Shown: piece by piece, positions 1-31,164 of the stretch
Numbering within the stretch: the first letter of the stretch is position 1
How the letters are laid out: each line of letters starts with the position of its first letter
From: a virus
Length of the DNA stretch: 64,000 nucleotides
Strand: one strand, 5' to 3'
Virus record (IMG/VR): IMGVR_UViG_3300037010_002844
Location: 1-64,000 of that record
Notes under the pieces: generated by a model
Seen by the model: only the letters and a program-made list of their open reading frames with translations
What the model was told of the DNA's origin: nothing
Database searches by the model: none
Made by a program: the position numbers and the translations under genes

Positions 1-6
1 CTAATC

Positions 7-375
7 ATGGCCAACACCACCAACGAAATCATCGGCTACCGCGTCGTCAACACCCGTGACCAGGTCTTCGTCGACCATAACCCTAGCTTCTCTGGGTCCG
101 GCAACTTCCAGACCTCCCGTGAGCCGACGCCCATCTCGCGCGGCGATGCCTTCCGACGCCTCGCGGCCTTCCTCGATGCCTTCCCCGAGGAAGATCACCA
201 GAAATTCGCCGTCGAGCCCGTCTACCGTGAGCTGACGCCCATCGAGTCCAGTGCCCGCGAGCTCGGGAGTCTCCTGTCTTCCCTCTGCCAACGCCACGGG
301 ATCAATCTCGGTATGTCCCAGGCCGAGATCGAGGCCCAGCTCGTCCGCGAGCTCCGGGCGTTCGGCGCCCGCTGA
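7..375 (+). CDS. hypothetical protein (122 aa)
   Basis: Intact ORF with codon usage typical of the window. First gene of a + strand block of four. No recognisable motif. Confidence 0.4.
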   Translation: MANTTNEIIGYRVVNTRDQVFVDHNPSFSGSGNFQTSREPTPISRGDAFRRLAAFLDAFPEEDHQKFAVEPVYRELTPIESSARELGSLLSSLCQRHGINLGMSQAEIEAQLVRELRAFGAR

Positions 376-463
376 GTTCACACCACAACTAGCGCACACG
401 GGGCTCGGGCAATCGCTCGGGCCCCGTGTGCATTTTATCCCGCGATCGTGATACACTAGAACC

Positions 464-766
464 ATGGCAACCAACCTCAAGTTCGCTGATGTGCTAAACT
501 ACCTCGCCACGTGCCAGCTCACCCCCACGGAGACGCAGCAGCTGGCCAAGGCCTGGAACGCCAACATCAAACGGCAGCGTACCGCGACGAAGGAGACCGC
601 GATCGCCCAGTTCCGCGTCGGACAGCGCGTCAGCTTCACGGCCCGTGGCGGGTTTCCCTGCACCGGCGTCATCGAGAAGGTGATGCGGGTCAACTGCTGG
701 GTCCGTGAGGATATGACGAAGCAGCGCTTCTACTGCCCGTCGACCTGCCTCAAGATCATCGCCTGA
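464..766 (+). CDS. small hypothetical protein (100 aa), SH3/KOW-like 'GQRV...G.I..V' motif
   Basis: ORF. Its start lies in the conserved context ACTAGAACCATGGCAA, which recurs in inverse orientation at 5453-5468. Contains FRVGQRVSF...GVIEKV, resembling the recurrent small-protein family in this window. Confidence 0.45.
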   Translation: MATNLKFADVLNYLATCQLTPTETQQLAKAWNANIKRQRTATKETAIAQFRVGQRVSFTARGGFPCTGVIEKVMRVNCWVREDMTKQRFYCPSTCLKIIA

Positions 767-770
767 TCCT

Positions 771-800
771 CGCTCGCGGGTGTGCAACTCGTTGCAAAGG
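771..800. promoter_or_regulatory. 30-nt inverted-repeat operator/promoter element, copy 1 of 3
   Basis: CGCTCGCGGGTGTGCAACTCGTTGCAAAGG. TGTGCAA and TTGCACA are reverse complements. Near-identical copies at 5852-5880 and 7525-7553. The TTGCAA half doubles as a -35-like hexamer 18 nt upstream of TAGGAT (816-821) and the ATG at 828. Confidence 0.6.
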
Positions 801-827
801 CACCGACAGGTGTGGTAGGATAAATCC

Positions 828-1283
828 ATGACCTGGGGCAAGCGACCCTCATCACGTGGTAGGGGACCGATCAACTGGAAGAAGGACGCAGAGACCTTCG
901 CGGTGCCGGTTGGCAAGATTCGGCGTCATACCCACGAGGAAGACGTCCCACTCGAGAAGCAAGAACTATACGCCGCCCACATGGTCCCGGGCGCGATGTG
1001 GGAGGTGATGAAGGACCTCGAGCTGGTCAAGCTCGGTCCCAACGTGGTGCAGCCGCCCTTTCCACTGCTGCAGGTCCACATACCTCGCACCTGGGATCCG
1101 ACCTACGATCCCAACAAGTCGACCGTTGCCCGCGCCAAGGCCATCGCTCTCTACGTTGACTCCGTCCGCGTGGATGAGCAGGGCAAGCAGGGCACGCTCC
1201 GCGTGGTCCGCCACACCTTCATCGTCGGCGGCGGGCGCTACATCATCACAGATCTCAACTGGGTCAGGCCGATTGATGACTGA
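828..1283 (+). CDS. hypothetical protein (151 aa)
   Basis: ORF preceded by GGTAGGATAAATCC directly before the ATG. Stop overlaps the next start (ATGACTGA). Confidence 0.45.
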   Translation: MTWGKRPSSRGRGPINWKKDAETFAVPVGKIRRHTHEEDVPLEKQELYAAHMVPGAMWEVMKDLELVKLGPNVVQPPFPLLQVHIPRTWDPTYDPNKSTVARAKAIALYVDSVRVDEQGKQGTLRVVRHTFIVGGGRYIITDLNWVRPIDD

Positions 1284-1563
1284 GAAGAAGCGTTCTCCAC
1301 GGCAGCTGGCCCGCCTAGCGTTGGGCGAACTCGTCATCTACAACGAACACCCGTCCCGGAAGGACGAGCCCGACCGCTTAGCGATGGTCATCGGCTGCTG
1401 GCGCTGGGGTGCTGACAGCAAGACACGGGAGGACCTCTTCAACGTCTGCCCCCGCGAGGTCGACTGGGCACAGGGCTACCTGCTACTGCCCAACTCAGAA
1501 TCGCGCTGGGTCCGTTGCTGGTTCGGCGACATAGACACACCCGAAAAGCTCCGCCGCGCTTAA
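1276..1563 (+). CDS. small hypothetical protein (about 95 aa)
   Basis: ATG at 1276 overlaps the upstream stop (translational coupling). The longer 1126..1563 frame is mostly an out-of-frame overlap with the previous gene. Contains LALGELVIYN, resembling the small-family motif. Confidence 0.4.
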   Translation: MTEKKRSPRQLARLALGELVIYNEHPSRKDEPDRLAMVIGCWRWGADSKTREDLFNVCPREVDWAQGYLLLPNSESRWVRCWFGDIDTPEKLRRA

Positions 1564-1571
1564 ACGACTTT

Positions 1572-1600
1572 CGCCCCCGAAACTCTGTGGAGTCCGGGGG
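1572..1600. terminator. bidirectional stem-loop terminator between convergent gene blocks
   Basis: GCCCCCGAAACTC-TGTG-GAGTCCGGGGGC, a 12/13 bp stem. Lies between the end of + genes (1563) and the end of - genes (1742). Confidence 0.55.
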
Positions 1601-1741
1601 CGAACCTCATTTTCGAGGCCTAGGTTACAGGGACTACGTCGGTTCGCCCTTTCACCTGCTTATAAAATATATTTGCTCAGGGCATGCACCATGCCATACC
1701 CGACCCCCGAGCGACGCTGGTTGATGGGAAGTCCCTACGGA

Positions 1742-2149
1742 CTATCCCTCTTTCTTCCCATCGCTTGACTCCTCCTCTCGCTTGATGGTCTTGAGCTGCT
1801 TGACCATCGGCTCAACCTTGGTCTTCATGACTTCATCGTAGACAGCCTGCTTGCGCGCCAGCCTCTGCCTCCGTGAAGGTCGCGTCGGCTTGCCTTTCTT
1901 TGGGACGGCAACGTATTTGTTCTTGACGAGCTTCTTTCGCTCCTCGGGCAGCTTCACCAGCTGCTTCTTCATCTGCTTACGCCACAGCTTGCGAAACTTC
2001 CGCTTCAAGCGTCGGGCATCTTCCTGCTGCAGGCCTTTCAACGCACGGCGGACGTCCATCGTCGGGTCTTCCATCGGGACGATGCCCTCTTGGAACATTG
2101 CCGTATGGATGAAGATTCGCGTGGCGTCGTTGAGCTTGTTGTTGCGCAT
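1742..2149 (-). CDS. lysine/arginine-rich basic protein, possibly DNA-binding (135 aa)
   Basis: Very basic composition (KRKFRKLWRKQMKKQLVKLPEERKKLVKNKYVAVPKKGKPTRPSRRQR). ATGA overlap with the upstream gene. Confidence 0.45.
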   Translation of the reverse strand: MRNNKLNDATRIFIHTAMFQEGIVPMEDPTMDVRRALKGLQQEDARRLKRKFRKLWRKQMKKQLVKLPEERKKLVKNKYVAVPKKGKPTRPSRRQRLARKQAVYDEVMKTKVEPMVKQLKTIKREEESSDGKKEG

Positions 2150-2484
2150 CAGCTGCCTCCGACCTTCTGCTGCCAGACTCGTCGAATCGATTCTATCGCC
2201 TGGTGCATCCGTTGTGCACCGACGGGATTGGCCGAATGAACGCTGATGATCTCAGGCGGGATGAAGTCCTGACGGGCGCACTGCTCTTCCAACCAGCAGA
2301 CAACATCGTAGCCGGTGCCTGCGCTCAGAGGTCCCAGATCGTGGTCGAGGCTTAGCTCCACCACGCGGCCCGTCTCCAACAGGCGCTGCGCGCCCGCCGC
2401 TGTCTTGGCGTGGATCCAACCTGAGGGCGCAGGCCGCTCATCATCAAGCCACAGTCGCATCGTCATCTGCTTCTGCTGGGTCAT
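2149..2484 (-). CDS. hypothetical protein (111 aa)
   Basis: ORF coupled on both sides by start/stop overlaps. Pattern LWLDDER...LSLDHDLG...ISVHSANP suggests a small Rossmann-like fold of unknown function. Confidence 0.4.
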   Translation of the reverse strand: MTQQKQMTMRLWLDDERPAPSGWIHAKTAAGAQRLLETGRVVELSLDHDLGPLSAGTGYDVVCWLEEQCARQDFIPPEIISVHSANPVGAQRMHQAIESIRRVWQQKVGGS

Positions 2485-3031
2485 CGTATTTCTCGTATCC
2501 AGGCGCCTTCGTCGCCCAGAGCAGGTATGTCCGCAGCATGGCGACCCGCGTCCTGTCGAAGGCTGCCTTGTCTTTCTTGGTCAACGCACCCAGGCGCCGC
2601 GCTAGCTTCCAACCACGGTGCCAGGCCTCGAACTCTTCATCAACGATGTCAATTCGATGATGAAATGAACGCTTAACGTCGGGATCCTGGTTGCCGTAGC
2701 CCATCCCGTAGCGCTCATATTTGTCCTTGCTGCCGATCAGGTGGTGCCCACACTCATGCAGGAGGATGTGCAGCTGGTGCTTCGGCGAAGCCCGGCCGCT
2801 GACCTTGATCTCCTTGTCAGCCGTGTAGTAGATACCACCGCTGCGCTTGCAGAAGGTCACTGTCAGCGACCGGGCCTCACACCACTCCACCACCACGCGG
2901 AGTGCCGAAACGTAGTGGCGATCTTCCGTCCACCGCTTGGTGGCCCGGTCTGCGTTCTTGCCCGCTTGGATCGCTTTTTGAAAGCGATCCCAGGCACGTG
3001 CATTCCACAGCTCGAGATCGAAGGCCGCCAT
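2444..3031 (-). CDS. putative zinc metallopeptidase-like protein (HExxH)
   Basis: HECGHH motif (LHILLHECGHHLIG). Immediately downstream of the AAA_5 ATPase in the same operon. Confidence 0.45.
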   Translation of the reverse strand: MAAFDLELWNARAWDRFQKAIQAGKNADRATKRWTEDRHYVSALRVVVEWCEARSLTVTFCKRSGGIYYTADKEIKVSGRASPKHQLHILLHECGHHLIGSKDKYERYGMGYGNQDPDVKRSFHHRIDIVDEEFEAWHRGWKLARRLGALTKKDKAAFDRTRVAMLRTYLLWATKAPGYEKYDDPAEADDDATVA

Positions 3032-3044
3032 GCAGGTAACTAGG

Positions 3045-4205
3045 TCACTTCTTCTTCCCTCCCGCCCCGGGCGACTTGAAGATGCCGGGGATGTCAGGAA
3101 CGATGCCGATGCCAGCCTCGCCCATCGGGACGCCGAAGACGTCCAGGACTGCGGCCGCGCAGTACTTGTGGATGCTGCGTGCCAGCTCCATTTTGTCGGT
3201 GCCAGGCAGGGTCAGCTTGGACCAGCAGTTGACGCGCTGCTCACCCGGCAGGTCCTTGAGAAACTGCTTCAGGTTGGTGCCTTGCTTCTCGGTCAGACTG
3301 TTGAGGTTCTTGGTCACGTGGTCCGAGACCTTATCGACCAGATCGTTGATGCGGTCGGCCGTGAACTTCTTGACCTTGTGCTGGACCTTGTCGTACCCGT
3401 CGATCACGTCTTTGCCCGAGACGCGGGTGTCGACGGTGACCGCGAAATCGTGGAAGGCGATCGCCGCCTCGACACCGACGAAGCCCACGGCTATGTGGTA
3501 GAACAGCGGGTTGCTGGGATCATCCGCGACCCCGGCGTGCTTGTGCGAGCGGTCCATACGCTCCCAGCTACGCCGCGAGGAATGAACGCTGCCGGCCTCG
3601 GCGCCCTTGGGCGGGTCGAGCCACTTCTCGCCGTTGGCAGCGTGGAAGTCGATCAGGGTCGGGTGAATGTCACCCTCGCCCTTTGCCCAGGCGAGCCAGT
3701 CCTTGACGTCCGGCTTGAGGTCGACGACCCAGAAGCGATCGAGGAGCGCCGGATCCATCTCGTTGACCGTGTACTCCTGTGAGGAGTTGATGGCCGACCA
3801 GACGCGGGTCTGGGGGTGCAGCTTCCAGCCGTTGAGCTCACGGTCGAGCACGATCTGGAACGCTGCCTGCATGACCTCCTGGGTCGCGCGGTTCAGCTCG
3901 TCCAGCAGGAGGAAGCAGGGCCGGACGCAGGCACGCTTGTACCAGTCGGGCGGATTGAAGCGCGTGACCTCGCCGTCGGTGCTGGGGAGGCCGATGAGAT
4001 CGCCTTCCGTCTTCTGCGACAGGCGCTGGTCGATGAACTCGAAGTCCTTGATCTGCTCCGCGTGAGCGATGATGCGGGCGACCTGGCGAGCCAGCTGCGA
4101 CTTGCCGATCCCGTGAGGACCGCGCAGCAGGACGGAGATGAAGGCGGGGAGCTTGGGAGAGACGTCCACAAGGGTATGGATCGCCATGGAGTTGGGAGTT
4201 GCCAT
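3045..4205 (-). CDS. AAA+ ATPase, AAA_5/MoxR-like subfamily
   Basis: Walker A LLRGPHGIGKSQL, Walker B FLLLDELNRA, sensor region QTRVWSAINSS. Layout typical of MoxR/CbbQ/GvpN-type AAA_5 ATPases. Confidence 0.7.
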   Translation of the reverse strand: MATPNSMAIHTLVDVSPKLPAFISVLLRGPHGIGKSQLARQVARIIAHAEQIKDFEFIDQRLSQKTEGDLIGLPSTDGEVTRFNPPDWYKRACVRPCFLLLDELNRATQEVMQAAFQIVLDRELNGWKLHPQTRVWSAINSSQEYTVNEMDPALLDRFWVVDLKPDVKDWLAWAKGEGDIHPTLIDFHAANGEKWLDPPKGAEAGSVHSSRRSWERMDRSHKHAGVADDPSNPLFYHIAVGFVGVEAAIAFHDFAVTVDTRVSGKDVIDGYDKVQHKVKKFTADRINDLVDKVSDHVTKNLNSLTEKQGTNLKQFLKDLPGEQRVNCWSKLTLPGTDKMELARSIHKYCAAAVLDVFGVPMGEAGIGIVPDIPGIFKSPGAGGKKK

Positions 4206-4249
4206 GTGGTGGTGTCTCTATCCTAACTTAGCGAGTCCCGGCTTTACAC

Positions 4250-4945
4250 TCAGGAGACGCGGTGGAGGTGCGAGGTGTTCGGCCGCCGCTCGTCGACGGT
4301 GATGGTGTACTTGCGCTCGACCTTGCCGTTGTAATCGTCCCGCGAGACGGGGTAGACGCCCGTCTTGATGCCCGGCAGCAGCGAGGAGGGGATGTTGCGA
4401 TCCTGACCCACGCGCATACCCTTGCGGACCATGTCGGCGGCCTCGTGGAGAACACGCTCGATGCGGGCTTCCTCGGCCTTGCGTTCCTGCTCGGCCATGA
4501 ACGCCGCCTGCTCCTCCGCGGTGCGGATGCAGACCGCGATCCCGTCGCCGATTTCCGCGTTGATCGCCTCCGTGAGCTCGACGACCCTGGTGTAGAACTC
4601 CAGGCGCGCCTTGGCGAGGGCGGGCCGCGTGTCTCCGTGGCTGGGCCAGTTGACCTCGACGCGGAACTTGTAGTTCCGCCAGATCGACCCGTCCTCACGG
4701 GGCTTCAGGTCGCGGGTCCAGTCGATCGTATCGAACCGCACGTAGAGGTCACAGCTCGTGTCGATCTGCTCCGTGGTATCGCGGAACATCACGGACACGT
4801 TGCCCGCGGAGCCCGACTTGCGCTGCTCGCGGAGCGACTGCATGGTGTGCGGGGACAGGTACTTCTGCGCGATCTCGCTGGCAAGGATGAGGTCGATGGC
4901 CTTGTGAGCGCGGTCGATGATGAGGGGCTGTTGCATGGCGTTCAT
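4250..4945 (-). CDS. hypothetical protein (231 aa)
   Basis: ORF preceded by the conserved 35-nt leader repeat containing GGTAGGATAGA. Confidence 0.45.
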   Translation of the reverse strand: MNAMQQPLIIDRAHKAIDLILASEIAQKYLSPHTMQSLREQRKSGSAGNVSVMFRDTTEQIDTSCDLYVRFDTIDWTRDLKPREDGSIWRNYKFRVEVNWPSHGDTRPALAKARLEFYTRVVELTEAINAEIGDGIAVCIRTAEEQAAFMAEQERKAEEARIERVLHEAADMVRKGMRVGQDRNIPSSLLPGIKTGVYPVSRDDYNGKVERKYTITVDERRPNTSHLHRVS

Positions 4946-4981
4946 GAGTCTATCCTACCAGGATCAGAGATGAAGGTTCAC
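4946..4981 (-). promoter_or_regulatory. conserved 35-nt leader/promoter repeat, copy A
   Basis: On the minus strand it reads GTGAACCTTCATCTCTGATCCTGGTAGGATAGACTC then ATG. About 80% identical to 5272-5307. Confidence 0.5.
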
Positions 4982-5271
4982 AGCAGCGCCAGCGAGATCG
5001 CCAGCTCCAGTCCGGGCTCCGTCAGTGCAAACACGTGAGCACCTGACTTCGTCTTGCCGACGACCTCGATGAAGCCTCGGTGCACCAGGGACGCTCGCCA
5101 GCCGTACCCGTCTCGTCCGGAGGTGACGAGGGAGTGCCCCCACGTCGGGCTCTGGAGCGCTCGTCGCTTCTGTTGGATCACTGCGAAATCTTTCACCGTT
5201 GCCGTCTTGTTGCGGACGAGGGTGAACAGGATATCGCGGATCGTGGGAGAAATGCGGCTTGGATTGACCAT
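4978..5271 (-). CDS. small hypothetical protein, possible winged-helix DNA-binding (97 aa)
   Basis: ORF preceded by the second copy of the 35-nt leader repeat. No strong motif. Confidence 0.4.
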   Translation of the reverse strand: MVNPSRISPTIRDILFTLVRNKTATVKDFAVIQQKRRALQSPTWGHSLVTSGRDGYGWRASLVHRGFIEVVGKTKSGAHVFALTEPGLELAISLALL

Positions 5272-5307
5272 GAGACTATCCTACCAGGTTCAGCGTTGAA
5301 GATTCAC
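5272..5307 (-). promoter_or_regulatory. conserved 35-nt leader/promoter repeat, copy B
   Basis: On the minus strand it reads GTGAATCTTCAACGCTGAACCTGGTAGGATAGTCTC then ATG. Confidence 0.5.
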
Positions 5308-5460
5308 TGCGCGCCACAGGCGCTTGACCTCACGCCATAGTTCCTCGACTGTGCACGCAATCTCCTTGCGGAACTCTTTTGAGAGAGGACGCGAGGACTG
5401 TGCCCGGACGTTGTCCGTTAGGATCTCGATGTCCGCGTCGGTCAAGGGGCGCTTGCCATG
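5294..5460 (-). pseudogene. small gene with apparent 1-nt frame disruption just after the start
   Basis: The ATG at 5458-5460 sits in the conserved ACTAGAACCATGGCAA context but opens only 5 codons (MASAP*). A 56-codon frame lacking an ATG (KRPLTDADIEILTDNVRAQ...LWRAVNLQR*) continues in the +1 frame. Confidence 0.3.
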
Positions 5461-5540
5461 GTTCTAGTTTAACTCAGCGAACCCAAAGTTTGCACTGCGA
5501 GCACAGAATATTCGTAGAATCAAGCCATAAGATACCCCGT

Positions 5541-5630
5541 CGGGCCCATGAAAGCCCTCCCGTGGGTCCCCTGTGGGCACAGTTTTGGTTGCTCATGGGC
5601 CCGAGAAGTGTAAGAGCTCATGGGCCCAGG
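5541..5630. repeat. GCTCATGGGCCC iterons in a divergent intergenic region
   Basis: GCTCATGGGCCC occurs directly at 5591-5602 and 5615-5626. Its inverse GGGCCCATGA occurs at 5543-5552. Lies in the 480-bp spacer between the - block and the RecA-like gene. Confidence 0.5.
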
Positions 5631-5851
5631 GTACTATAAGACCATGAGCAACGCCTTCTAGAACTTCGTCAGGCAGCACGATACAGGCATCTCGCGGACC
5701 GGGTGTCCACGCGGCACCTCTCGGGTTCGATCTTGACCTGACTCACCTGTCGGAGCTGCTGCGGCTTGCCCAGCAGACGGGTTACCAGCTCTGCAACACG
5801 GGCTGGGATGACTGCATCATGGTCACCTAGACTTTCAGCGTTGGCTGATCG

Positions 5852-5880
5852 CGCTCGCGAGTGTGCAACCCATTGCACTG
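5852..5880. promoter_or_regulatory. 30-nt inverted-repeat operator, copy 2 of 3
   Basis: CGCTCGCGAGTGTGCAACCCATTGCACTG, about 60 nt upstream of the RecA-like gene. Confidence 0.6.
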
Positions 5881-5941
5881 GGTGAAAATCAGCGCCTGGG
5901 CGTGATAGACTGTAGACCTCCACCACCACGGGGTAAGATAT

Positions 5942-6706
5942 ATGGCGAGCATGAACCTCAACGTCGGAATCAAGGGCCTGAAGCAGGGCACCAACATCAT
6001 GGATGTTGAGGTGCCTGAGAAGCTGAAGCAGCGCATCAAGACCGGCATCACCTGGTTCGATGACGCGGTTGGTGGCCAGGGTTTCGTGCCCAGCTCCGTC
6101 ATGATGCTGACCGGTACGCCTGGCGCCGGCAAGACCACGATGCTGCTGCAGCTGGCGGACGCCATCACCGGGCAGGGGAACATCTGCCTCTACAACACCG
6201 GCGAGGAGTCGCTCTACCAGGTGCGCATGGTGACCGAGCGCCTGAAGTTGAAGCACGGCTTCATCTGTGGCCAGGACATCATGGTGCCCGACCTGCTGAA
6301 GCACGCGGACGCGCTGCGCAAGGCCAACCCGAAGAAGCAGGTCTTCATTCTGCAGGACTCGCTGCAGACCCTGGACGACGGCAAGTACTCCAACGGTACC
6401 AATGGCGCCACGCCGCTGCGCTGCGTCGAGATGCTGACCGACTGGGCGAAGAGCACCTACGGCATCGTCATCTTCATCGGACAGGTCAACAAGAGCGGCG
6501 AATTCGCCGGCAAGAACGGGATCCTCCACGCGATCGACGTCCGCGGGTCGCTCTACATCGACCAGGAGAAGAACAGCGAGACCTACGGGGAGCGCATCTT
6601 CGAGGTCACCAAGAACCGCTTCGGTTGCTCGGGCCGCGCCTACGTCCTCGGCTTCCAGGAGAAGGGGCTCTTCGAGAAGGGCAGCTTCGGCATGAACGAG
6701 CGCTGA
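5942..6706 (+). CDS. RecA-superfamily ATPase (RadA/KaiC/Sak4-like recombination or DnaB-C-like)
   Basis: TWFDDAVGG...VMMLTGTPGAGKTTMLLQL Walker A. Walker B-like VFILQDS. RecA-fold layout. Confidence 0.6.
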   Translation: MASMNLNVGIKGLKQGTNIMDVEVPEKLKQRIKTGITWFDDAVGGQGFVPSSVMMLTGTPGAGKTTMLLQLADAITGQGNICLYNTGEESLYQVRMVTERLKLKHGFICGQDIMVPDLLKHADALRKANPKKQVFILQDSLQTLDDGKYSNGTNGATPLRCVEMLTDWAKSTYGIVIFIGQVNKSGEFAGKNGILHAIDVRGSLYIDQEKNSETYGERIFEVTKNRFGCSGRAYVLGFQEKGLFEKGSFGMNER

Positions 6707-6789
6707 ACCCGCGATCTGGGGGCGCAATTCTCGGGAGAGACGGGGGCACGGGTCCTTAGGGACCCAAGCTCACGCGGCCAACGGGAGAC

Positions 6790-6830
6790 CAATAGCGCCG
6801 AACCCGGTTCGATTCCGGGGCGCTCCACGA
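6790..6830 (+). other. tRNA 3'-half-like fragment (T-arm plus 3' acceptor strand)
   Basis: CCCGG-TTCGATT-CCGGG is a canonical T-arm (GGTTCGATTCC), followed by GCGCTCC-A. No complementary 5' acceptor strand or anticodon arm lies within 110 nt upstream, so this is not a complete tRNA. Confidence 0.35.
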
Positions 6831-7124
6831 GAGACGGATATACTGACAAGGGCAACACCACGTGCCGGGAGGTAAAGGAACAACTAGTCGAAGTCGTCAG
6901 TTGACAGATGCCTTGACAAGACTGGATCTACGTAGCATTGCAAGAACCTGCCAGATCAAGTCAAAAGAGGTCGTTTCTCTCTTTCAATGACGATGTTAGC
7001 TCGTGATTCTTCTCCTTTGCGGGAGAAATGTCAGCCAACATCTACGTTCTATAAGTTGACCGTAGATCTCGTAAGACAGATGCATGTTTAACAATGACAG
7101 GGAGAGGAAGAGAAAGTCTCTGCT

Positions 7125-7158
7125 CCCCGGTCAACCCCATCTCAACACCGGGGTTTTT
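7125..7158 (+). terminator. intrinsic terminator (hairpin plus T5)
   Basis: CCCCGGT-N15-ACCGGGG followed by TTTTT. The T-run overlaps the stop codon of the convergent minus gene. Confidence 0.55.
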
Positions 7159-7576
7159 ACGGCTTCTTAGCCTGAGACTTGCGGAGGCGTTCCGCCTTCT
7201 CCTTGTCCTTCTTTTCTTTTTCCTCGGCACGCTCGTCTGAGGTCTTGACGGTGTGCAGGGACTTCTCATCATCGAGATAGTAATAGAGGGTACGCTTGGC
7301 AACGCCCAGCTCGCTGGCTGCCTTGGCAGCATCGCCCCCGTGACCGTTTACGGCGGCGCGGACCCTGTTGCGGAACTTCTCAGGGTTGAGCTGGCGCACT
7401 GCCCCGATGTCGGTGCGCGGCCCGCCGGGCTTGGCGTGGCGCTTCTTCTCGTCGAGGAGATCCAACGTCTCCTTGATGAACTCCTTCAACAGTGCTGCAC
7501 TCATGGGTCTAAGTAGGCAGCCCGCGCTCGCGGGTGTGCAACTCATTGCACAGTTGATACCCATGAGAGGGCCCAA
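7157..7576 (-). CDS. HTH DNA-binding protein (candidate regulator or small terminase-like)
   Basis: AAKAASELGVAKRTLYYYL is a helix-turn-helix. Basic/acidic KE-rich tail. Operator copy 3 lies directly upstream. Confidence 0.5.
   Translation of the reverse strand: MGPLMGINCAMSCTPASAGCLLRPMSAALLKEFIKETLDLLDEKKRHAKPGGPRTDIGAVRQLNPEKFRNRVRAAVNGHGGDAAKAASELGVAKRTLYYYLDDEKSLHTVKTSDERAEEKEKKDKEKAERLRKSQAKKP
7525..7553. promoter_or_regulatory. 30-nt inverted-repeat operator, copy 3 of 3
   Basis: CGCTCGCGGGTGTGCAACTCATTGCACAG, upstream of the minus-strand HTH gene. Confidence 0.6.
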
Positions 7577-7738
7577 TTCCGCAACTCACAGGTAGAGTTC
7601 ATAGTCGAAGTTCCACACGGGGATGCGGGCACGGGCCCAAGAAAAAGCTTCCAACCCCGCGGCAACCCCATCTCTTTGCCGGCATTTATGCAAATGTTCT
7701 GAGTGCAAAGCTCGCTTGGGAAGGGATAGAATCTGAAC

Positions 7739-17687: not shown

Positions 17688-18176
17688 ATGCAGCCTAACA
17701 CGCGTAGGAGCATTGTGGACTTCGGACTGAACGTCGGTGACATCGTTACGTTTGCGTCTGAGAACGATAACACCGGTGGGTGTATCTATCAGATCGTCTT
17801 CGACCAGACGCCCATAGCGCCGCACACCACGCGGCGCACGACCACACGAACTCGAACAAAGTTCAACTGGCGGGACAATAGCAAATCTCAAGAAACTGAG
17901 ACGTACGAACACGTCGAACACGGCAGGTGGGACGAACAAGGTCGCAAGATCAAGCCTTGCGACGTCGCCGGCTACGTTCGTATCAAGCCGCTGTTCACCT
18001 TCTATCCGACGCCTCGAGGCAAGAAGCCCAAGGGAGCGGGTGAGACCATCATGGTCTACTACGGCCATGGTGTTTCACAGTTGAAGAAGGTCGAGGTTGC
18101 TGACCTGGGTGCCAAATACGTGGAACTGGGCGAACTGATGAAGTTCCTGCTCCGTAAGGGAGGCGCCGAACTGTGA
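17688..18176 (+). CDS. paralog-family protein A2 (162 aa)
   Basis: Paralog of 15769..16269. Confidence 0.5.
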   Translation: MQPNTRRSIVDFGLNVGDIVTFASENDNTGGCIYQIVFDQTPIAPHTTRRTTTRTRTKFNWRDNSKSQETETYEHVEHGRWDEQGRKIKPCDVAGYVRIKPLFTFYPTPRGKKPKGAGETIMVYYGHGVSQLKKVEVADLGAKYVELGELMKFLLRKGGAEL

Positions 18177-18448
18177 AGGTCAAGCCTGAAATTGGCGAGT
18201 TCGTCACCCACGTTCACTGGAACGGCGCCCGAGAGGGCGTCATTTGGCAAGTTTTGGCACACAAGGGTTCCAAGGTTCGAATCGACCCGATCTTCACCGT
18301 CACTGGCCCGTCGATCCTCAAGGCCAAGTGGGTTCACTATAGTGAGATTGAACTGATCGACCTTGTCACGTTGGGTTCCTCGCGGGCTCAGATCGACATC
18401 ATCATCCAGGAGCTGGTCCGTCGGCGTTCCAGCGAAGTCACCGCCTGA
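18173..18448 (+). CDS. small SH3/KOW-like family protein
   Basis: IGEFVTHVHWNGAREGVIWQVL motif. ATGA coupling. Confidence 0.4.
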   Translation: MKVKPEIGEFVTHVHWNGAREGVIWQVLAHKGSKVRIDPIFTVTGPSILKAKWVHYSEIELIDLVTLGSSRAQIDIIIQELVRRRSSEVTA

Positions 18449-18752
18449 TTGGCGGCGTCGGCAACGGAGAGAAATCGCGAACAAACGGGTCCTGAGACAC
18501 ATAGGGTTCCGGAGTCGTCGGCGGCACAGGACCCCAGCAATCTTCGGGATCTTCCTGTGGATCTCTTAGGTGTTCAGGTAGCTCGTCGTCAATGGGCGTG
18601 CCGCTCTGCAACTTTCCTAGCTGCTCACGGTTGTTGATGTCGGGCGACATGGCATTGCGTGCCGCGGGCTGCGGCGGTGAGGCCCAACCACCGCCGGTCT
18701 CAATCAGGATTGTCCTGATGATGTGCCTTAGTTCACCTAGCTTTATCCGCAC
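18438..18752 (-). CDS. N-terminal targeting-motif family protein (104 aa)
   Basis: Starts MRIKLGELRHIIRTILIETGGGWASPPQP, which is the shared N-terminal motif followed by a Gly/Pro linker. Confidence 0.45.
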   Translation of the reverse strand: MRIKLGELRHIIRTILIETGGGWASPPQPAARNAMSPDINNREQLGKLQSGTPIDDELPEHLRDPQEDPEDCWGPVPPTTPEPYVSQDPFVRDFSPLPTPPIRR

Positions 18753-18801
18753 ACAATAAGTAGGCGAGTACTCAGGCCGTAGCAGGGGTTAGGATAGACG
18801 C

Positions 18802-19035
18802 ATGACGACACTGGCAGTTGAAGTCACTTGGGCCCGACAGCCCGCACCTGACGAGACGGTGACGATGATCATCGCCTTGACGTTGCCGCCCCCGTTGCGG
18901 GCGACGTTTCCGAGTTCCAACATCGTGGACGTCAACATTCCGCCCAACTTTATTCCCAACGTCATCGGCAGGACGTTCATCGTCTTTGACGACAACTACG
19001 AAAGACTCGGTTCGGGAAGGATCGTTCGCCAATGA
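18802..19035 (+). CDS. small hypothetical protein (77 aa)
   Basis: Preceded by GTTAGGATAGACGC directly before the ATG. Confidence 0.4.
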   Translation: MTTLAVEVTWARQPAPDETVTMIIALTLPPPLRATFPSSNIVDVNIPPNFIPNVIGRTFIVFDDNYERLGSGRIVRQ

Positions 19036-19145
19036 AGCCCAAGATTCTGATGATCCTGTCTGACATCCTGTGGAAGGTCGGCCTCCATCAGTTCAGCCTG
19101 CGTTGTTACATCAATGCGAGGTTGATGCAGCAGTGATGGTGTCTC

Positions 19146-19391
19146 ATGTGGTCCCCCGGCACGTTCTTGCACCTCCGTAAGGAGTACGTCAACAGCATTC
19201 TTGGCTTTAGCCGCAGCTCGACCGCGCCACGGGCCACAACAGCGTTGGTGATTGCCATCCGCGAGACGGGCTTCGGCACGCGCGGTCGCAAGTGGGACGC
19301 CTTACTGTTGATCAATGGGTATATCTTCGAAGTTGAGGACGCCTGGAAGAAGGAAGACATGTTCTACGTCCACGTGTGGAATCACAAATGA
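19146..19391 (+). CDS. small hypothetical protein (81 aa)
   Basis: ORF only. Confidence 0.3.
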   Translation: MWSPGTFLHLRKEYVNSILGFSRSSTAPRATTALVIAIRETGFGTRGRKWDALLLINGYIFEVEDAWKKEDMFYVHVWNHK

Positions 19392-19829
19392 GTAGGACGA
19401 TCGTCATCGGCGACCTTCACGGATGTTAGAGAGAGGCCATCGACCTCAGATCAAGTAATCTTCCCGGGCGACTACGTCAATCGCAGGCCCGACAATGCCA
19501 AGTGCTGCGATCTCGTCCGCGAGCGTGAGCAGGTCCAGGATTCACCCGCCGGCGTGCTGGGAAATCACGAGGACCACGTTCAATGCATCGGTCGCGTGCC
19601 CAGCATGCCCGACAGTCACGTGAAGACTCGAGCGCAGCTGCAGTCAGAGCATTACGAGTGGTTTCGTTCACTGCCTCTGCTCATCAAGGTATCAGACCAT
19701 AACGTGGTGTGCGTCCATGCGGGCATCGATGGCGGCGCAGTGTTCGGTCATGACCTTCACGCTCTCGTGTTGGGAGATGAGTCCGACCGCATCGTCACCG
19801 TCAAAGGCGTCCACGATTACGGCAAATGA
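19388..19829 (+). pseudogene. disrupted lambda-PPase/ApaH-like metallophosphoesterase (Ser/Thr phosphatase family)
   Basis: MSRTIVIGDLHGC ends in an in-frame TAG. The other motifs lie in the +1 frame: VIFPGDYVNRGPDNAKC (GDxVDRG) and GNHEDH (GNHE), then the ...VHAGIDGG ORF. An in-frame stop plus a frameshift are needed to assemble the enzyme. Confidence 0.55.
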
Positions 19830-19943
19830 CATCGAGGTCGCCAGACCGAGGAGGAAATCATCCGCGGTGGGCACATCAAGCTATTCCTTGTCCGCGGTAA
19901 CGTTGGCACCTTCAGTTGACCCTCGCGCGCCTATTTACCCTCG

Positions 19944-22289
19944 ATGAGGGCGAAGGTACAAGAAGTCGCACTGCTGTTGGAGATCAGTTTCAACGGTTTC
20001 GTTGATCGCTTTAAGCAGCTTGCCAAGCAGATCAAGGCGACAGCTATCGTCAAGGCCATCGACTCGCTAGACGATGCGCCCCCAGGCCTCAAGGCCAAGC
20101 TACATGACGCATTCGATGCCTGGGTGGATTCTGGCGGGCTGAGCAACAGCGGTTACTACAGTGAAGTTCTCTTCACTAAGCTGAAGGCTGCTTTGGGCAG
20201 TCTGTCAGACGATCAGCTCGATGATCTCTTTTCAAAGATCACAAACTTTGAGGCGGTCCCAAGCCACGCTGACAAGAGCATTCAGGACATTGCGTTCAAC
20301 TCGATCCTGAAGCGACTGTCACACATCCCAATTCCGATCCTGCGTGACCTCAGGGAAGACCTGCAGGACCTGCAGCTTAACGTCAAGAACCACGCCACGG
20401 CTCGTGACTTCTTGAATTACGCCCTGGGCGCAGTGATTGAAAGCAACCCGACTGAAAAGCACTTCAGGTTGCAGTCGTCCAAAGGTTACTTCACGCGCTG
20501 GTTGGAACAACTGGACAGCGAGGACGCTGAGTCCGAGATCGACAAGCTCGACAAGATCATCGCTGGGTTTGAGGCCAAGAAGGCCGAGGCCGCCTGGGAC
20601 GTGGTCGACGCAGGCCGCGAATTGCTCGACCTTCTGAAGGAGAAGGTTCCGAGCGACCTAAAGCCCTACTATGAGACCGTAATCTCATACGACTACCACA
20701 TTGGTATGTCGGACTACAATTCCATCAACACGTTCAATGCGTATCTTAACGAGGATGAAAACGAGTTTCTCGAAGAGTACGCAAGGATTGCAGAACGCTC
20801 GAGCAGGCTAGCGCGCAAGGTCATCACGCAGATCAAGGCAATGCTCGAGCGCGAGACTCCCAAAGCCGCCAGGTACGTGCAGACCCTGAAGGGTGAACTG
20901 ACCGAGGAACAGCTGCAGGACCTGCAGACGCTCGCGGATTACGCTCGCTTCACTCACAAGTTGGGCGGCGCCAAAGTTTCAAGGGACTACTTCGGCAAGA
21001 GCATTTGGAACTTTCCCAACGACTTTACTGACAAAATCGACAAGATCACCAAGATCGATCCCGAGGTCGGACCTAAGTCAATGACACGCTTGCGAGCTGT
21101 CATGGCCTACTCGCAGATCATCAACTCCTCTGAGTTGCATGAATACATCAAGAACCTGAGAGACGATCTCGCTCAGGTCAAGGAACAGCTCAAGGCAAAG
21201 GACGATCCTCAATTCATTGCGTTGATCGATGGCCTGATCAAGTTGTCGGACACCATCAGATCGATGCCCGATGATGACATCGTGGATACGTTTGAAACGC
21301 TTGGACCCGAGAAGTCATCGAACGAGACCTACTTTTGGGGCAGCATCATTTCGACAATGCGCTCCAAAGGTGATGACTTCACCAAACAGCCCAATGATCT
21401 CAAACGCGCCCTGAAAGCATGGGCACTGACCTCAGAAGGTGACAGGCCAAAACTGCTGCAGCGCGCCAAGAAGATCGCCAGCAGTTGGATCAAAAAGACG
21501 AAGGCGAAGAACGCCGAGCTGTTGAAGAAGGCGCCTCCTGAAGCAGAGCCCTCAGCGCCCCTACAGCAGTGGGCCTTTGCCGACCAGCGCAAGGGAAAGG
21601 TTCCGTATGAGGCAAACTCGAAGGAAGAGCAGAAGTTGTACAATGACCTGTATGCCCACTTCGTCAACAACGATCCGATCTCACCCGCTCACGCTAAGCT
21701 GATCCAGTCCTTCCTGCAAAAGGGTCAATACGCTAGCGTCTTCCGCGAGCCTAAGCAGGCGTACGTCCTCCGTGGCATGAACGTTCCTGCAGATTATCTG
21801 CGCAAGGCCTTGAAGCTAAAGCCCGGAGATGATCTGCCACCGAAGGGAAACAAGGCCGCATCATTCACGTTCACGCCGTTGTCAGGTCGCGGGGCCACTA
21901 GCTGGTCATCAACGTCGCAAGGTGCTGTCAAGTTTTCAAACGATGGAGGTTACGGTTCTTACGCCATCATCATGGTCGCCTCTGTCAAGAAGAATCCAAA
22001 CAAGTTCTGCATGGGACCGGGCGCTCTCTACAACGTTCAGGGCTTCGATGAGTACGAGACTGAAGACGAGGTCATTGCCTTGGGCGAGATCAATGTCTCA
22101 AAGGTCTTCTGGTCAATCAACTCCATCACCAAGTCGACGCCGGGCCTGCCAAAGGGCGGTGTTGGCCACAAGACGTTGAAGAAAAAGAAGAAGGTGGCGA
22201 CCAATAAGTCAGTGGCTAAGAAACCGATCGCCAAGAAGAAACCTGTGGCCGCCAAGAAGCTCGTCAATAAATCCACGAAAAAGAAGTGA
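19944..22289 (+). CDS. large hypothetical protein (781 aa) with lysine-rich C-terminal tail
   Basis: Long, predicted mostly alpha-helical. C-terminal tail KKKKKVATNKSVAKKPIAKKKPVAAKKLVNKSTKKK is histone H1-like. Confidence 0.5.
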   Translation: MRAKVQEVALLLEISFNGFVDRFKQLAKQIKATAIVKAIDSLDDAPPGLKAKLHDAFDAWVDSGGLSNSGYYSEVLFTKLKAALGSLSDDQLDDLFSKITNFEAVPSHADKSIQDIAFNSILKRLSHIPIPILRDLREDLQDLQLNVKNHATARDFLNYALGAVIESNPTEKHFRLQSSKGYFTRWLEQLDSEDAESEIDKLDKIIAGFEAKKAEAAWDVVDAGRELLDLLKEKVPSDLKPYYETVISYDYHIGMSDYNSINTFNAYLNEDENEFLEEYARIAERSSRLARKVITQIKAMLERETPKAARYVQTLKGELTEEQLQDLQTLADYARFTHKLGGAKVSRDYFGKSIWNFPNDFTDKIDKITKIDPEVGPKSMTRLRAVMAYSQIINSSELHEYIKNLRDDLAQVKEQLKAKDDPQFIALIDGLIKLSDTIRSMPDDDIVDTFETLGPEKSSNETYFWGSIISTMRSKGDDFTKQPNDLKRALKAWALTSEGDRPKLLQRAKKIASSWIKKTKAKNAELLKKAPPEAEPSAPLQQWAFADQRKGKVPYEANSKEEQKLYNDLYAHFVNNDPISPAHAKLIQSFLQKGQYASVFREPKQAYVLRGMNVPADYLRKALKLKPGDDLPPKGNKAASFTFTPLSGRGATSWSSTSQGAVKFSNDGGYGSYAIIMVASVKKNPNKFCMGPGALYNVQGFDEYETEDEVIALGEINVSKVFWSINSITKSTPGLPKGGVGHKTLKKKKKVATNKSVAKKPIAKKKPVAAKKLVNKSTKKK

Positions 22290-22299
22290 TAAACGCACT

Positions 22300-23169
22300 A
22301 TGAAGATAAAGGTAAAAGACCTACGCCGCACCATCCGCGAGGCACTCGTTACCGAAGTCGGTATCGATAAGCTCAAGGGCATGAAGGGCACCTTGGGCTC
22401 CACCCATGAGATGAACGTGGCCAAATTGGTGGGCTCGGAGGAGAAGTTCTTCGTCAAGTTCTCTGACATCGCAGAGGACCTTTGGAACGAAGGCGACCCC
22501 GATCCTAGCATGCAGTGCATGAGCGAGTACCTCGCCTACAAGCTGTATGCCCTCTACCCGGGCGTCAAGATTCCCAGCCGTATTGAGTTGGTCTATGATC
22601 CTAACAACTCACGGGTCGGTATTGCCACGGCTGCTGTCAAAGGCAAGATGGCGCTCGGTCGCATCAAGCCTCAGGCGCTGGCGAAGCAGCTCGAGGCAGG
22701 CGTCTACGTCGACATTTTCCTGGCCAATTACGACGTCATCGGTACTGGCGCCGGCAACCTGATATCGTCGGACGACGGCTCAGTCACCCGTATCGACCCG
22801 GGTTCATCGTTCAAGTACCGTGCACGGGGTGGTCGCAAGGGACCTGGCTTCAACGACAAGGCTGGTGAGCTGAACACAATGTTGGACCCTGACTTCGGCT
22901 ATGGCGAGGCAGCCGGGTCAGTCTATCAGTACGCTGACCTCAAGGTCGCAGCCAAGGAGTTCATGACAGTAAGTTGGCCCGCAATCGCCGCGCGTATCGA
23001 TGAGGTTCAGGGGTCAGTCGCGGCTGAACTTGAGGAGAACGGCATGGACGACCTGCTGCAACAGTGGCACGCCGAGGTCAACGACATCAAGAAGGTCCTG
23101 GCTGGCCGTTACAAGGTTGTTACAATGCACGCGCAGAAGGTCCTCGCTGCCGACAAGAAGACACGTTGA
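22300..23169 (+). CDS. N-terminal targeting-motif family protein with a PI3/4-kinase-like catalytic signature (289 aa)
   Basis: Starts MKIKVKDLRRTIREALVTEV. Internal IFLANYDVIGTGAGNLISSDDGSVTRIDPGSSF resembles the GDRHxxN...IDFG catalytic/activation loops of PI3/PI4-kinase-like atypical kinases. Confidence 0.45.
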   Translation: MKIKVKDLRRTIREALVTEVGIDKLKGMKGTLGSTHEMNVAKLVGSEEKFFVKFSDIAEDLWNEGDPDPSMQCMSEYLAYKLYALYPGVKIPSRIELVYDPNNSRVGIATAAVKGKMALGRIKPQALAKQLEAGVYVDIFLANYDVIGTGAGNLISSDDGSVTRIDPGSSFKYRARGGRKGPGFNDKAGELNTMLDPDFGYGEAAGSVYQYADLKVAAKEFMTVSWPAIAARIDEVQGSVAAELEENGMDDLLQQWHAEVNDIKKVLAGRYKVVTMHAQKVLAADKKTR

Positions 23170-23546
23170 TATTGCGACAACGATTCATTGCCACAATCAA
23201 CTCCACTCGCGGGGCCTAACTCTTTTGTTCAAAACGATAGAGGCTCTCAAAGAACTTGTCAAGTATTTTGACCCGTTTGACGGGTATTCCGACGTGTTCA
23301 GCGTACTACTACAGGTACTTGGCATCACGTTGGTCGCTCTCTAGGCGATGCATGTCACCGCAAATGCAGGACTTTCCATCCTAGAGACCGCTGGCCCACC
23401 AGTAACCTGGACCGCCGAGGTCACTTCGTCTGACCAGGCGCTCAACGCCTTGAAGGCCGCGTAGCAGACGTTAATCACCGCCAACGCCAAGAAGAACATC
23501 ATGATCTCGTAGTGACTACACCACGTGAACAGCATCTCTGCGTTCG

Positions 23547-23813
23547 TCACTTTGAGCGCCAGGCAACACGGCCCCGCGTCAGGTCGTAAGGCGAGACTTC
23601 AATCGTCACTCGATCGCCGGGCAGCAGGCGAATGTGGTGGAGCCGCAGCTTGCCCGACAGGGTGCACAGCACCTTGATGCCATTGTCACAGATGACCCTA
23701 AACAGGGTTCCCGGCAACGCTTCGTCGATCATGCCCTGAAGTTCGATCGAGTCCTCGCGCTCGGGCTGCTCTTGCGCCGAGTTGCTCCAGTTCTTCTTGT
23801 TCTTCTTTGCCAT
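23547..23813 (-). CDS. infA: translation initiation factor IF-1 homolog with lysine-rich N-terminal extension
   Basis: [70 protein letters not shown] aligns over its length with bacterial IF-1 ([67 protein letters not shown]). Confidence 0.85.
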
Positions 23814-23976
23814 CGTCTTGTGTCTCGTCGTCACCGAGTTCGGGCGGGGGTGCGGCACCATTGCCGCCATTGTAGCCACCCTCTTGTCCGCCGCTAAAGA
23901 TTCCTGCGCTCCAGCGCATGTTGCGCTCGACTTCTTCTCGAATTAGAGCGCGCAGTTCGCGGATGGTGATCCTCAT
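23698..23976 (-). CDS. N-terminal targeting-motif peptide ORF overlapping the infA start
   Basis: [45 protein letters not shown], which is the motif followed by a Gly/Pro linker. The frame then overlaps the first 115 nt of the IF-1 gene in the -1 register. Confidence 0.4.
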
Positions 23977-29778: not shown

Positions 29779-31164
29779 TCACTTTCGATCGAAAGAGCGC
29801 TCAACCTCTTCGACCTCATCGTGCGAGACCTTCACGATTTCGACATCCTTGTCGAGGTTGTAGTTGGGATCGGGCGGGTCGGTGTCAGGCCCGTCTTCCT
29901 CGTCATCCTCTTCAATTTCGACCTTCGTCATCTTGAGGTGCTTGCGGGTCAGGCGATGCATCCGCTCGACCTCATCGACATCCTTGTACTTCTCGAGACG
30001 CTTGACGCGGTCGGCCAACTCCTTGGTTGAGGCCTCGGCCTCTTCGGCGCTCATGAAACGTCGGCGCTTGACGTACTCCTGGATGAAGGCGATGGGCCAA
30101 TCCTTGACACTTTTCATGGCGTCCTTCAGTTCGGGACCCAGCACGGCCTCGATGACCTCAGGCTCCATCTCGTTGATCAACAACAGCTCATCGAAGCGAC
30201 CGGGGCGCAGAATCGCCTCGTCCAGCGAGTTGCGGTCGTTGACCGTCGCGATGACCAACTTCACGTGACGTTGGAAGAACTCCAGCGTCTCCAGGAGCTG
30301 CGCCTGAGCGTGAGCCCGATCGAAGTCATCCAAGATGATCGCGTCTGGTTCGAAGATGCTGATGGCCTCGAACAACGTCGAGCTCTCCAGGCCCGCCACA
30401 TCTTCCACGCGGATGCGGAAAGAGCGCATCTTCAGCTCGGTGACGATGGTTCGCGCCATCGTCGACTTGCCGGTTCCCGGCGGCCCGTACAACATGACAG
30501 ACCGCGAGACGTTGGCATCGATGCAGCGCTTCAGATAGGCCGCGTAGTTTGAGGCCCGCCTCGAGGGCATCGAGTGGAAAGCATCGTCCAATTCGAACAA
30601 CACTCGGGATTCATCGTCATGCAGCACCAGACGCTTGTTCTGGCGCATCACCAGGTTAGCGTCCTTGAACTGTTCCCAAAGCAGGCGCTTGATAACGTTG
30701 CGAGCGTCCTGCAACCGCGCGGTCTCGACGTAGATGTTGTCGATGGCCGACAACTTGGTGTTCATGATGTACCCACACTTGATGCCTTCGACATCGACGA
30801 TGCGGATGATGTTGTTCTCGTCTGACGTTCGAATTGTCTCATACGGATACCCGGTGATCACCTTGATGATCGTCTGGTTGAAGTCCCGCGAGTAGGGCAG
30901 GTTCCACTCGTCACCTGCGAAGTAGTCCTCGCTCCACAGCTCAACCTCGTCAACAAACACCTTGCCGATGGCGAAGGCAGCCTTGACGCCGTTCCACCAA
31001 TTGGGCTTCTCGAGGAAGGGCGCGACAGCGGTGAACACCTCGGTTCCCAAGGCGATCGTCTTCTTGACCTTGCTGATGTTGAACGCGGCCTTCAATTCCT
31101 CCACGAGCGTCCTTTCTTTCTCGAGGCTGGGATCACTCGCCGGGACACGGCTCTTCTTACGCAT
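29779..31164 (-). CDS. classical AAA+ ATPase with 200-aa N-terminal domain
   Basis: Walker A LYGPPGTGKST, Walker B IILDDFD, second region of homology ATVNDRNSLDEAILRPGRFD. Confidence 0.8.
   Translation of the reverse strand: MRKKSRVPASDPSLEKERTLVEELKAAFNISKVKKTIALGTEVFTAVAPFLEKPNWWNGVKAAFAIGKVFVDEVELWSEDYFAGDEWNLPYSRDFNQTIIKVITGYPYETIRTSDENNIIRIVDVEGIKCGYIMNTKLSAIDNIYVETARLQDARNVIKRLLWEQFKDANLVMRQNKRLVLHDDESRVLFELDDAFHSMPSRRASNYAAYLKRCIDANVSRSVMLYGPPGTGKSTMARTIVTELKMRSFRIRVEDVAGLESSTLFEAISIFEPDAIILDDFDRAHAQAQLLETLEFFQRHVKLVIATVNDRNSLDEAILRPGRFDELLLINEMEPEVIEAVLGPELKDAMKSVKDWPIAFIQEYVKRRRFMSAEEAEASTKELADRVKRLEKYKDVDEVERMHRLTRKHLKMTKVEIEEDDEEDGPDTDPPDPNYNLDKDVEIVKVSHDEVEEVERSFDRK

Follow-up and report, generated by a model that had tools for sequence, protein, structure and literature searches.

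We interpret the region 19388-19919 on the + strand of the window (the whole stretch of 64,000 nucleotides analysed here) as a non-functional relic, or pseudogene, of a PPP metallophosphatase gene of the ApaH/PrpE/lambda-PPase (NinI-like) type in an uncultured jumbo phage, and we put the probability of this reading at about 0.93. The gene would have encoded about 250 aa; its domain is now broken by two in-frame stop codons and one frameshift, and the longest ORF in the relic is 91 aa. The 532 nt of the relic occupy the gap between an upstream ORF, whose stop codon is overlapped by the ATG of the relic (ATGA, 19388-19391), and a downstream gene starting at 19944. When the eight intact relatives described below (P0001-P0008) were compared with the window by tblastn, they matched 19388-19447 in one frame and 19449-19916 in the +1 frame, with E values down to 6e-33, far above chance. 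An earlier note on this DNA had reported a TAG directly after motif I, with homology resuming in the +1 frame, and had taken a decaying gene as the simplest reading. The first point is confirmed in the sequence (TAG 19427-19429; 19449 onward), and the second is supported by at least six lesions relative to the intact relatives. The features discussed are listed in Table 1.

Table 1. Features of the relic and of its surroundings in the window, with the evidence for each.
Feature	Positions	Strand	Evidence or remarks
Whole PPP metallophosphatase relic, ancestral start to ancestral stop	19388-19919	+	tblastn of P0001-P0008, alignment A1
N-terminal fragment MSRTIVIGDLHGC from ATG 19388	19388-19426	+	Sequence, tblastn
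Premature TAG	19427-19429	+	A1 column after HGC/HGM
REAIDL, homology kept in the original frame past the TAG; DEAIEL or similar in relatives	19430-19447	+	tblastn, A1
Frameshift junction	19448	+	tblastn pieces stop at 19447 and resume at 19449 in the +1 frame; gap at A1 columns 22-30
Middle fragment DQVIFPGDYVNRRPDN...GNHE...VHAG, +1 frame relative to ATG 19388	19449-19724	+	tblastn
Degraded motif II, GDYVNRR (AAT CGC AGG for NRR)	19467-19487	+	Sequence, A1
Motif III GNHE, retained	19560-19571	+	Sequence, A1
Junction of 73-codon in-frame deletion, VHAG fused to IDGGAVFG	19722-19727	+	tblastn, A1 columns 131-213
Second premature stop, TGA	19827-19829	+	tblastn, A1
C-terminal relic past the TGA, HRGRQ...FLVRGNVGTFS	19830-19919	+	Aligns in frame with C-termini of relatives
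AAA_5 (MoxR-like) ATPase	3045-4205	-	In the high-G+C first ~8 kb
Major-vault-protein-like gene, 859 aa	11150-13729	+	MVP_shoulder E = 3e-28, Vault_3, Vault repeat, SPFH/Band_7
Double matches of two adjacent L001 proteins	15859-16236 / 17721-18170 and 16626-16805 / 17418-17663	+	
781-aa ORFan directly downstream of the relic	19944-22289	+	Lys-rich C-terminal tail (...KKKKKVATNKSVAKKPIAKKKPVAAKKLVNKSTKKK)
eIF-1a/IF1-like small protein	23547-23870	-	73% identical to L001 counterpart, best-conserved gene of the neighbourhood
Phage-type GroEL, 535 aa	27402-29009	-	PHROG 5725 E = 7e-149; at most 50% identity to GenBank phages
AAA ATPase	29779-31164	-	Cluster conserved in L001, L002, L003
391-aa protein, N-terminal nucleoside 2-deoxyribosyltransferase-like domain	38614-39789	-	PF15891 E = 6e-14

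Family and intact relatives

The stitched translation of the relic matches Pfam Metallophos (PF00149) with E = 1.2e-09 and PHROG 246, 'NinI-like serine-threonine phosphatase', with E = 2.8e-14; the latter is the best phage family for the relic and for an intact relative alike (E = 4.9e-32 for the intact relative). The closest solved structure of the intact form is that of an ApaH-like phosphatase (PDB entry 2qjc; E = 1e-24 over residues 2-231), and lambda PPase (PDB entry 1g5b) is a more distant relation. Against NCBIfam the intact form matches ApaH (NF001204; E = 1e-22) and PrpE (NF010148; E = 2e-15), with scores of 80.7 and 57.1 bits, respectively. As these scores all lie below the equivalog cut-offs (176 and 340 bits), no substrate can be assigned. 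Judged by these profile and structure matches, the relic belongs to the ApaH/PrpE/lambda-PPase/NinI-like group of PPP metallophosphatases, in agreement with the lambda-PPase/ApaH-like family first proposed for it. The signature by which PPP enzymes are diagnosed consists of three N-terminal motifs, in which most of the metal ligands lie (PMC535813).

A search of approximately 5.8 billion proteins with the stitched query returned the eight intact metallophosphatases, which are 246-258 aa long and are each encoded by a single ORF (8/8). They derive from metagenomic contigs, one of 325,360 bp, and are 48-56% identical to the stitched query by BLASTP. With the more distant P0009-P0011 included, the number of relatives aligned is 11. 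The possibility that the relic represents a naturally short form of the family was rejected, as P0009, with only 205 aa, retains both the GH motif and, in shorter form, the region that is deleted in the relic. No match was found in GenBank phages by blastn of positions 17500-23500 of the window, and nothing was found in IMG/VR with either the downstream 781-aa protein or an exact 60-mer of the relic. When an intact relative was compared with GenBank phages by tblastn, only NinI-like phosphatases with 24-27% identity were returned. The relic shares a fold family with the NinI-like phosphatases (PHROG 246; lambda PPase, 1g5b), showing GDxHG, the remains of motif II and GNHE, but it is unlike the annotated phage phosphatases in this low identity and in that the copy in the window is not intact.

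Comparison with intact homologs, one of the checks suggested at the outset, also gives the relic a position. The gene order MVP-like gene, small genes, phosphatase, eIF-1a-like gene and Cpn60 is common to the window and to a 325-kb contig (L001), in which the phosphatase is intact at 258 aa; the syntenic proteins are 27-73% identical. This shared order indicates that the relic corresponds in position to an orthologous gene still intact in related phages. Two further contigs (L002 and L003) carry an intact phosphatase near the same AAA/Cpn60/eIF-1a-like cluster.

Lesions and extent of decay

The N-terminal fragment, which includes motif I (GDLHG, 19409-19423), matches the first 20 residues (1-20) of the intact relatives with 70-79% identity by tblastn. 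The TAG stands where these relatives carry Tyr, Phe or His, and a change of TAY to TAG takes one substitution. At 19448 nine codons (LxKCxxxxx) that are found in all full-length relatives are absent and one extra base is left, which fits a deletion of approximately 26 nt that would have set the +1 frame. Motif I is severed from the rest of the domain by the TAG two codons on and by the frameshift. Motif II follows motif I at a distance 9 residues less than in any full-length relative (A1); the earlier note had put the shortening at about 10 residues relative to lambda PPase.

Beyond the junction, the +1 frame reads DQVIFPGDYVNRRPDN...GNHE...VHAGIDGGAVFG...DYGK before the TGA at 19827-19829. 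Its middle fragment is 53-55% identical to residues 30-129 of P0003 (tblastn, E = 2e-31). Motif II had been read as GDYVNRG; it is in fact GDYVNRR, with a mutation in the invariant Gly as well. Each of the eight intact relatives reads GDxxDRG here, so that the relic shows both Asp to Asn and Gly to Arg changes. The first of these is natural in ApaH and ALPH enzymes, which replace the second Asp of GDxxDRG (PMC535813), and alone it is not disabling; the second is seen in none of the 11 aligned relatives. ApaH/ALPH proteins (2qjc from Trypanosoma brucei; E. coli ApaH, 2dfj) and PrpE are the known enzymes closest to the intact relatives, but the intact relatives from phages, unlike ApaH/ALPH, retain motif II in its canonical form, GDxxDRG. 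After GNHE there is an in-frame gap of about seven codons compared with the shortest intact relative, in a stretch that is variable.

The largest lesion is the in-frame loss of 73 codons (219 nt; residues 130-202 of P0003), which removed the GH motif (FGHS). In the tblastn comparison, the match to P0003 up to residue 129 ends at 19724 and that to residues 203-258 begins at 19722. VHAG (19713-19724) is present in the relic. Among PPP enzymes, lambda PPase included, metal ligands come from the GH motif and from the His of VHAG. The GH motif is kept by every relative, including P0009 and the distant P0010-P0011. Further on, the TGA replaces the Gly of GKG (present in seven of the intact relatives, with a gap in the eighth), and GGA to TGA is again one substitution. 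Homology does not stop there: the segment that follows pairs in the same frame with GRRGTQ...FNVHGNVCTYS at the C-termini of the relatives and runs to 19916, making the TGA at 19917-19919 the ancestral stop, whereas the earlier note had ended the feature at 19829. That note had mentioned neither the 73-codon deletion, nor the second nonsense codon, nor the shorter in-frame gap.

The count of lesions, as read from the alignment, is at least six independent events, and the decay is dominated by deletions. Among the 86 columns that are invariant in the intact relatives, the relic keeps 56, loses 24 and alters six, the altered ones including two in motif II (Asp and Gly) and the Gly codon turned into TGA. 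A leave-one-out comparison places the relic first in the proportion of changed invariant sites, at 9.7% compared with 0-7.1% in the intact members. Over the aligned columns of A1, the surviving codons are 51-62% identical to the relatives, which are on average 61% identical among themselves. As the identity of the relic is no lower than that between relatives, decay by point substitution has been modest. This suggests that the death of the gene was fairly recent relative to the divergence of these phages, or else that some residual constraint may act on the remaining frame.

Overall, the relic retains similarity to the family, motif I (GDxHG) and motif III [GNH(E/D)], and lacks motif II (GDxxDRG), the complete C-terminal ligand set (VHAG is present, GH absent) and an uninterrupted ORF of about 250 aa. 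Homology across frames and beyond stop codons, real lesions and an intact counterpart at the matching position are all found. In these respects it resembles pseudogenes in bacteria and large phages, which likewise combine several disabling lesions, mostly deletions, with homology past the stops and an intact ortholog.

We propose that the ancestral gene lay here, between the major-vault-protein-like gene and the eIF-1a-like/GroEL/AAA cluster. In this lineage it has gained two nonsense mutations (TAG 19427 and TGA 19827), the frameshifting deletion of approximately 26 nt at 19448, the motif II substitutions and the short in-frame gap, and has lost 219 nt in frame, a part of the core that includes the GH metal-ligand motif. 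No route of translation would yield an active phosphatase. The relic DNA is probably still transcribed within the run of + strand genes, and its maximal output would be a 13-residue peptide made by coupling to the upstream ORF and perhaps an inactive fragment of 74-91 aa. The relic remains in the genome as DNA that deletion has yet to clear away.

Alternative explanations

The first alternative is that the relic has been put to new use, either as a truncated non-catalytic protein of 91 aa (from GTG 19554) or 74 aa (from ATG 19605; 19605-19829) or as a regulatory spacer for the gene of the 781-aa protein. Such ORFs do exist, IMG calls a gene here under the name 'ApaH/PP2A family phosphatase', and the surviving codons are not strongly diverged. 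An N-terminally truncated product starting at the Met of MLGNHEDH had been suggested before, but the codon in question is the GTG at 19554, the first in-frame ATG being that at 19605. An ORF of 74-91 aa has no motif I, motif II or GH motif and, going by the PPP signature (PMC535813), its product cannot bind two metals and should have no phosphatase activity. The relic contains no promoter-like sites and no terminator; the only terminator-like site in the scanned region is upstream of it, at 18958-18977. A search of the window against Rfam gave no family match, and there is no independent short homolog, cluster 1 consisting of a single member. No recognisable ribosome-binding site precedes the fragment ORFs, which is uninformative as Shine-Dalgarno-like motifs are sparse throughout the window. 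We regard new use of either kind as highly improbable.

Programmed recoding would take the form of readthrough or reassignment of the TAG, or of a +1 shift at UGU-UAG. The arrangement of the frames is suited to such a shift: the downstream frame is exactly +1 and is open over 19392-19829, and one such event at the TAG would be enough to put the first three motifs together in one chain of 146 aa, MSRTIVIGDLHGC-RERPSTS-DQVIFPGDY...GK. This product, however, would still be short of 82 residues (9 from between the first two motifs and 73 from the segment with GH), would keep GDYVNRR and would terminate where a conserved Gly has given way to TGA. The intact relatives, all eight of which are plain single ORFs, give no indication of a conserved recoding site. 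The heptamer UGU-UAG-A would appear to allow tRNA-Cys no re-pairing in the +1 frame, and we see no Shine-Dalgarno-like stimulator in the sequence upstream of UGU-UAG.

The genetic code also speaks against recoding. Under the standard code, 94 non-overlapping ATG ORFs of 70 aa or more account for 84% of the window, and long conserved genes such as those for GroEL (535 aa) and the MVP-like protein (859 aa) are open. The stop codons of the 94 ORFs are TGA in 75 cases, TAA in ten and TAG in nine, so that the second premature stop is the main terminator of this genome; one of the TAG codons ends a 706-aa ORF (49097-51217) that abuts the next gene. The code here is the standard one, with TAG as a working terminator. 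A search for suppressor tRNAs in the complete genome had been advised, and in the 64-kb window, which is part of a genome at least 309 kb long, no tRNA was found; reassignment of TAG as a sense codon was rejected on this result and on the TAG ends of nine of the 94 ORFs. With at least six independent lesions, including the loss of 73 codons with the GH motif, no single recoding event rescues the gene. The earlier suggestion of readthrough or recoding combined with a frameshift fails for these reasons, with lesions that cannot be rescued, a TAG that terminates and relatives that are single ORFs, and we give recoding next to no credence.

A related proposal is that the relic still gives rise, for instance by way of a +1 shift at UGU-UAG, to a catalytically dead protein of about 146 aa with a non-enzymatic role such as binding a substrate or host factor. 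The near-normal identity of the surviving codons is compatible with an expressed phosphatase-like protein of this kind. Nevertheless, we consider this extremely unlikely beside the reading of the region as a non-functional relic.

Equally, we can find hardly any room for an assembly or sequencing artefact that conceals an ordinary intact phosphatase gene, although consensus errors can create frameshifts and stops and the comparison was made at the level of contigs. A Logan contig of SRR11727740 (L005/L006) matches the window with 100% identity over 8,346 bp, and a JGI contig of sample 3300036715 (L007) does so with 99.85% identity over 3,302 bp. The five mismatches of the latter all lie at 20872-20894, beside the end of that contig, and are uninformative on selection. 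The 532 nt of the relic are identical base for base in both assemblies, which come from two pipelines and from two samples besides the source of the window itself. Identical bases in separate assemblies from two other samples make an assembly error very unlikely. The lesions, moreover, are deletions of approximately 26 and 219 nt and base substitutions, not errors in homopolymer length; the genes flanking the relic are intact; and no near-identical intact version occurs among the approximately 5.8 billion proteins searched, the best match being 56% identical. The assembly errors that the earlier note thought might restore a single ORF are accordingly not seen. To judge from these contigs, the relic is fixed, its sequence being the same in all assemblies of this phage that were examined.

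Genome context

From its gene content, the window seems to come from an uncultured jumbo phage, whose genome measures at least 309 kb. The ORF of the 74-aa fragment is present on 6-8 contigs and the downstream 781-aa protein is likewise found on several (5-8 overall), the longest being 309,481 bp. Compact phage genomes seldom carry pseudogenes; in jumbo phages these are less rare. In our view, this one is an ordinary, fixed pseudogene produced by routine gene decay, with nothing unusual about it when compared with known pseudogenes. It does indicate that a jumbo-phage lineage can do without an ApaH/NinI-like phosphatase, and the persistence of a relic with six lesions across samples points to some tolerance of non-coding DNA in a genome of this size. 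The IMG label of the 74-aa fragment, 'diadenosine tetraphosphatase ApaH/Ser-Thr PP2A family phosphatase', would wrongly credit the phage with this activity.

The surrounding genome, with its MVP-like gene, GroEL and eIF-1a-like gene, is of more interest than the relic. The MVP-like protein has a homolog of 894 aa at the same place in the 325-kb contig (L001 1-1772). A search of the full-text literature for major vault protein in jumbo phages returned one paper, which concerned Borgs, and nothing on phages; the gene may merit a study of its own. The genes for GroEL, the AAA ATPase and the eIF-1a-like protein form a cluster that is conserved across L001, L002 and L003. The window also contains many ORFans. 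One of them is the 781-aa protein, for which there is no Pfam or PHROG match and no detectable homolog in L001, where three small genes follow the phosphatase instead; its 90% cluster also holds a member of 470 aa.

Several smaller observations concern the neighbourhood. The window as a whole shows a strong preference for TGA as the stop codon, and many gene junctions overlap as ATGA. Immediately upstream of the relic, two ORFs on the + strand (19032-19136, 34 aa, and 19146-19391, 81 aa) lie in one frame and are split by a TGA at 19134-19136. They could be a second interrupted gene beside the relic; the only match to the joined query was the 81-aa ORF itself, and the upstream gene of L001 has no similarity to it. 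Each of two adjacent L001 proteins (132 and 135 aa) has two separate matches in the window (Table 1), which suggests, on sequence similarity, that a pair of small genes upstream of the relic has been duplicated. Finally, the G+C content of positions 1-8000 is 0.60-0.62, compared with 0.53-0.59 elsewhere in the window, and this first stretch of approximately 8 kb may be a distinct module.
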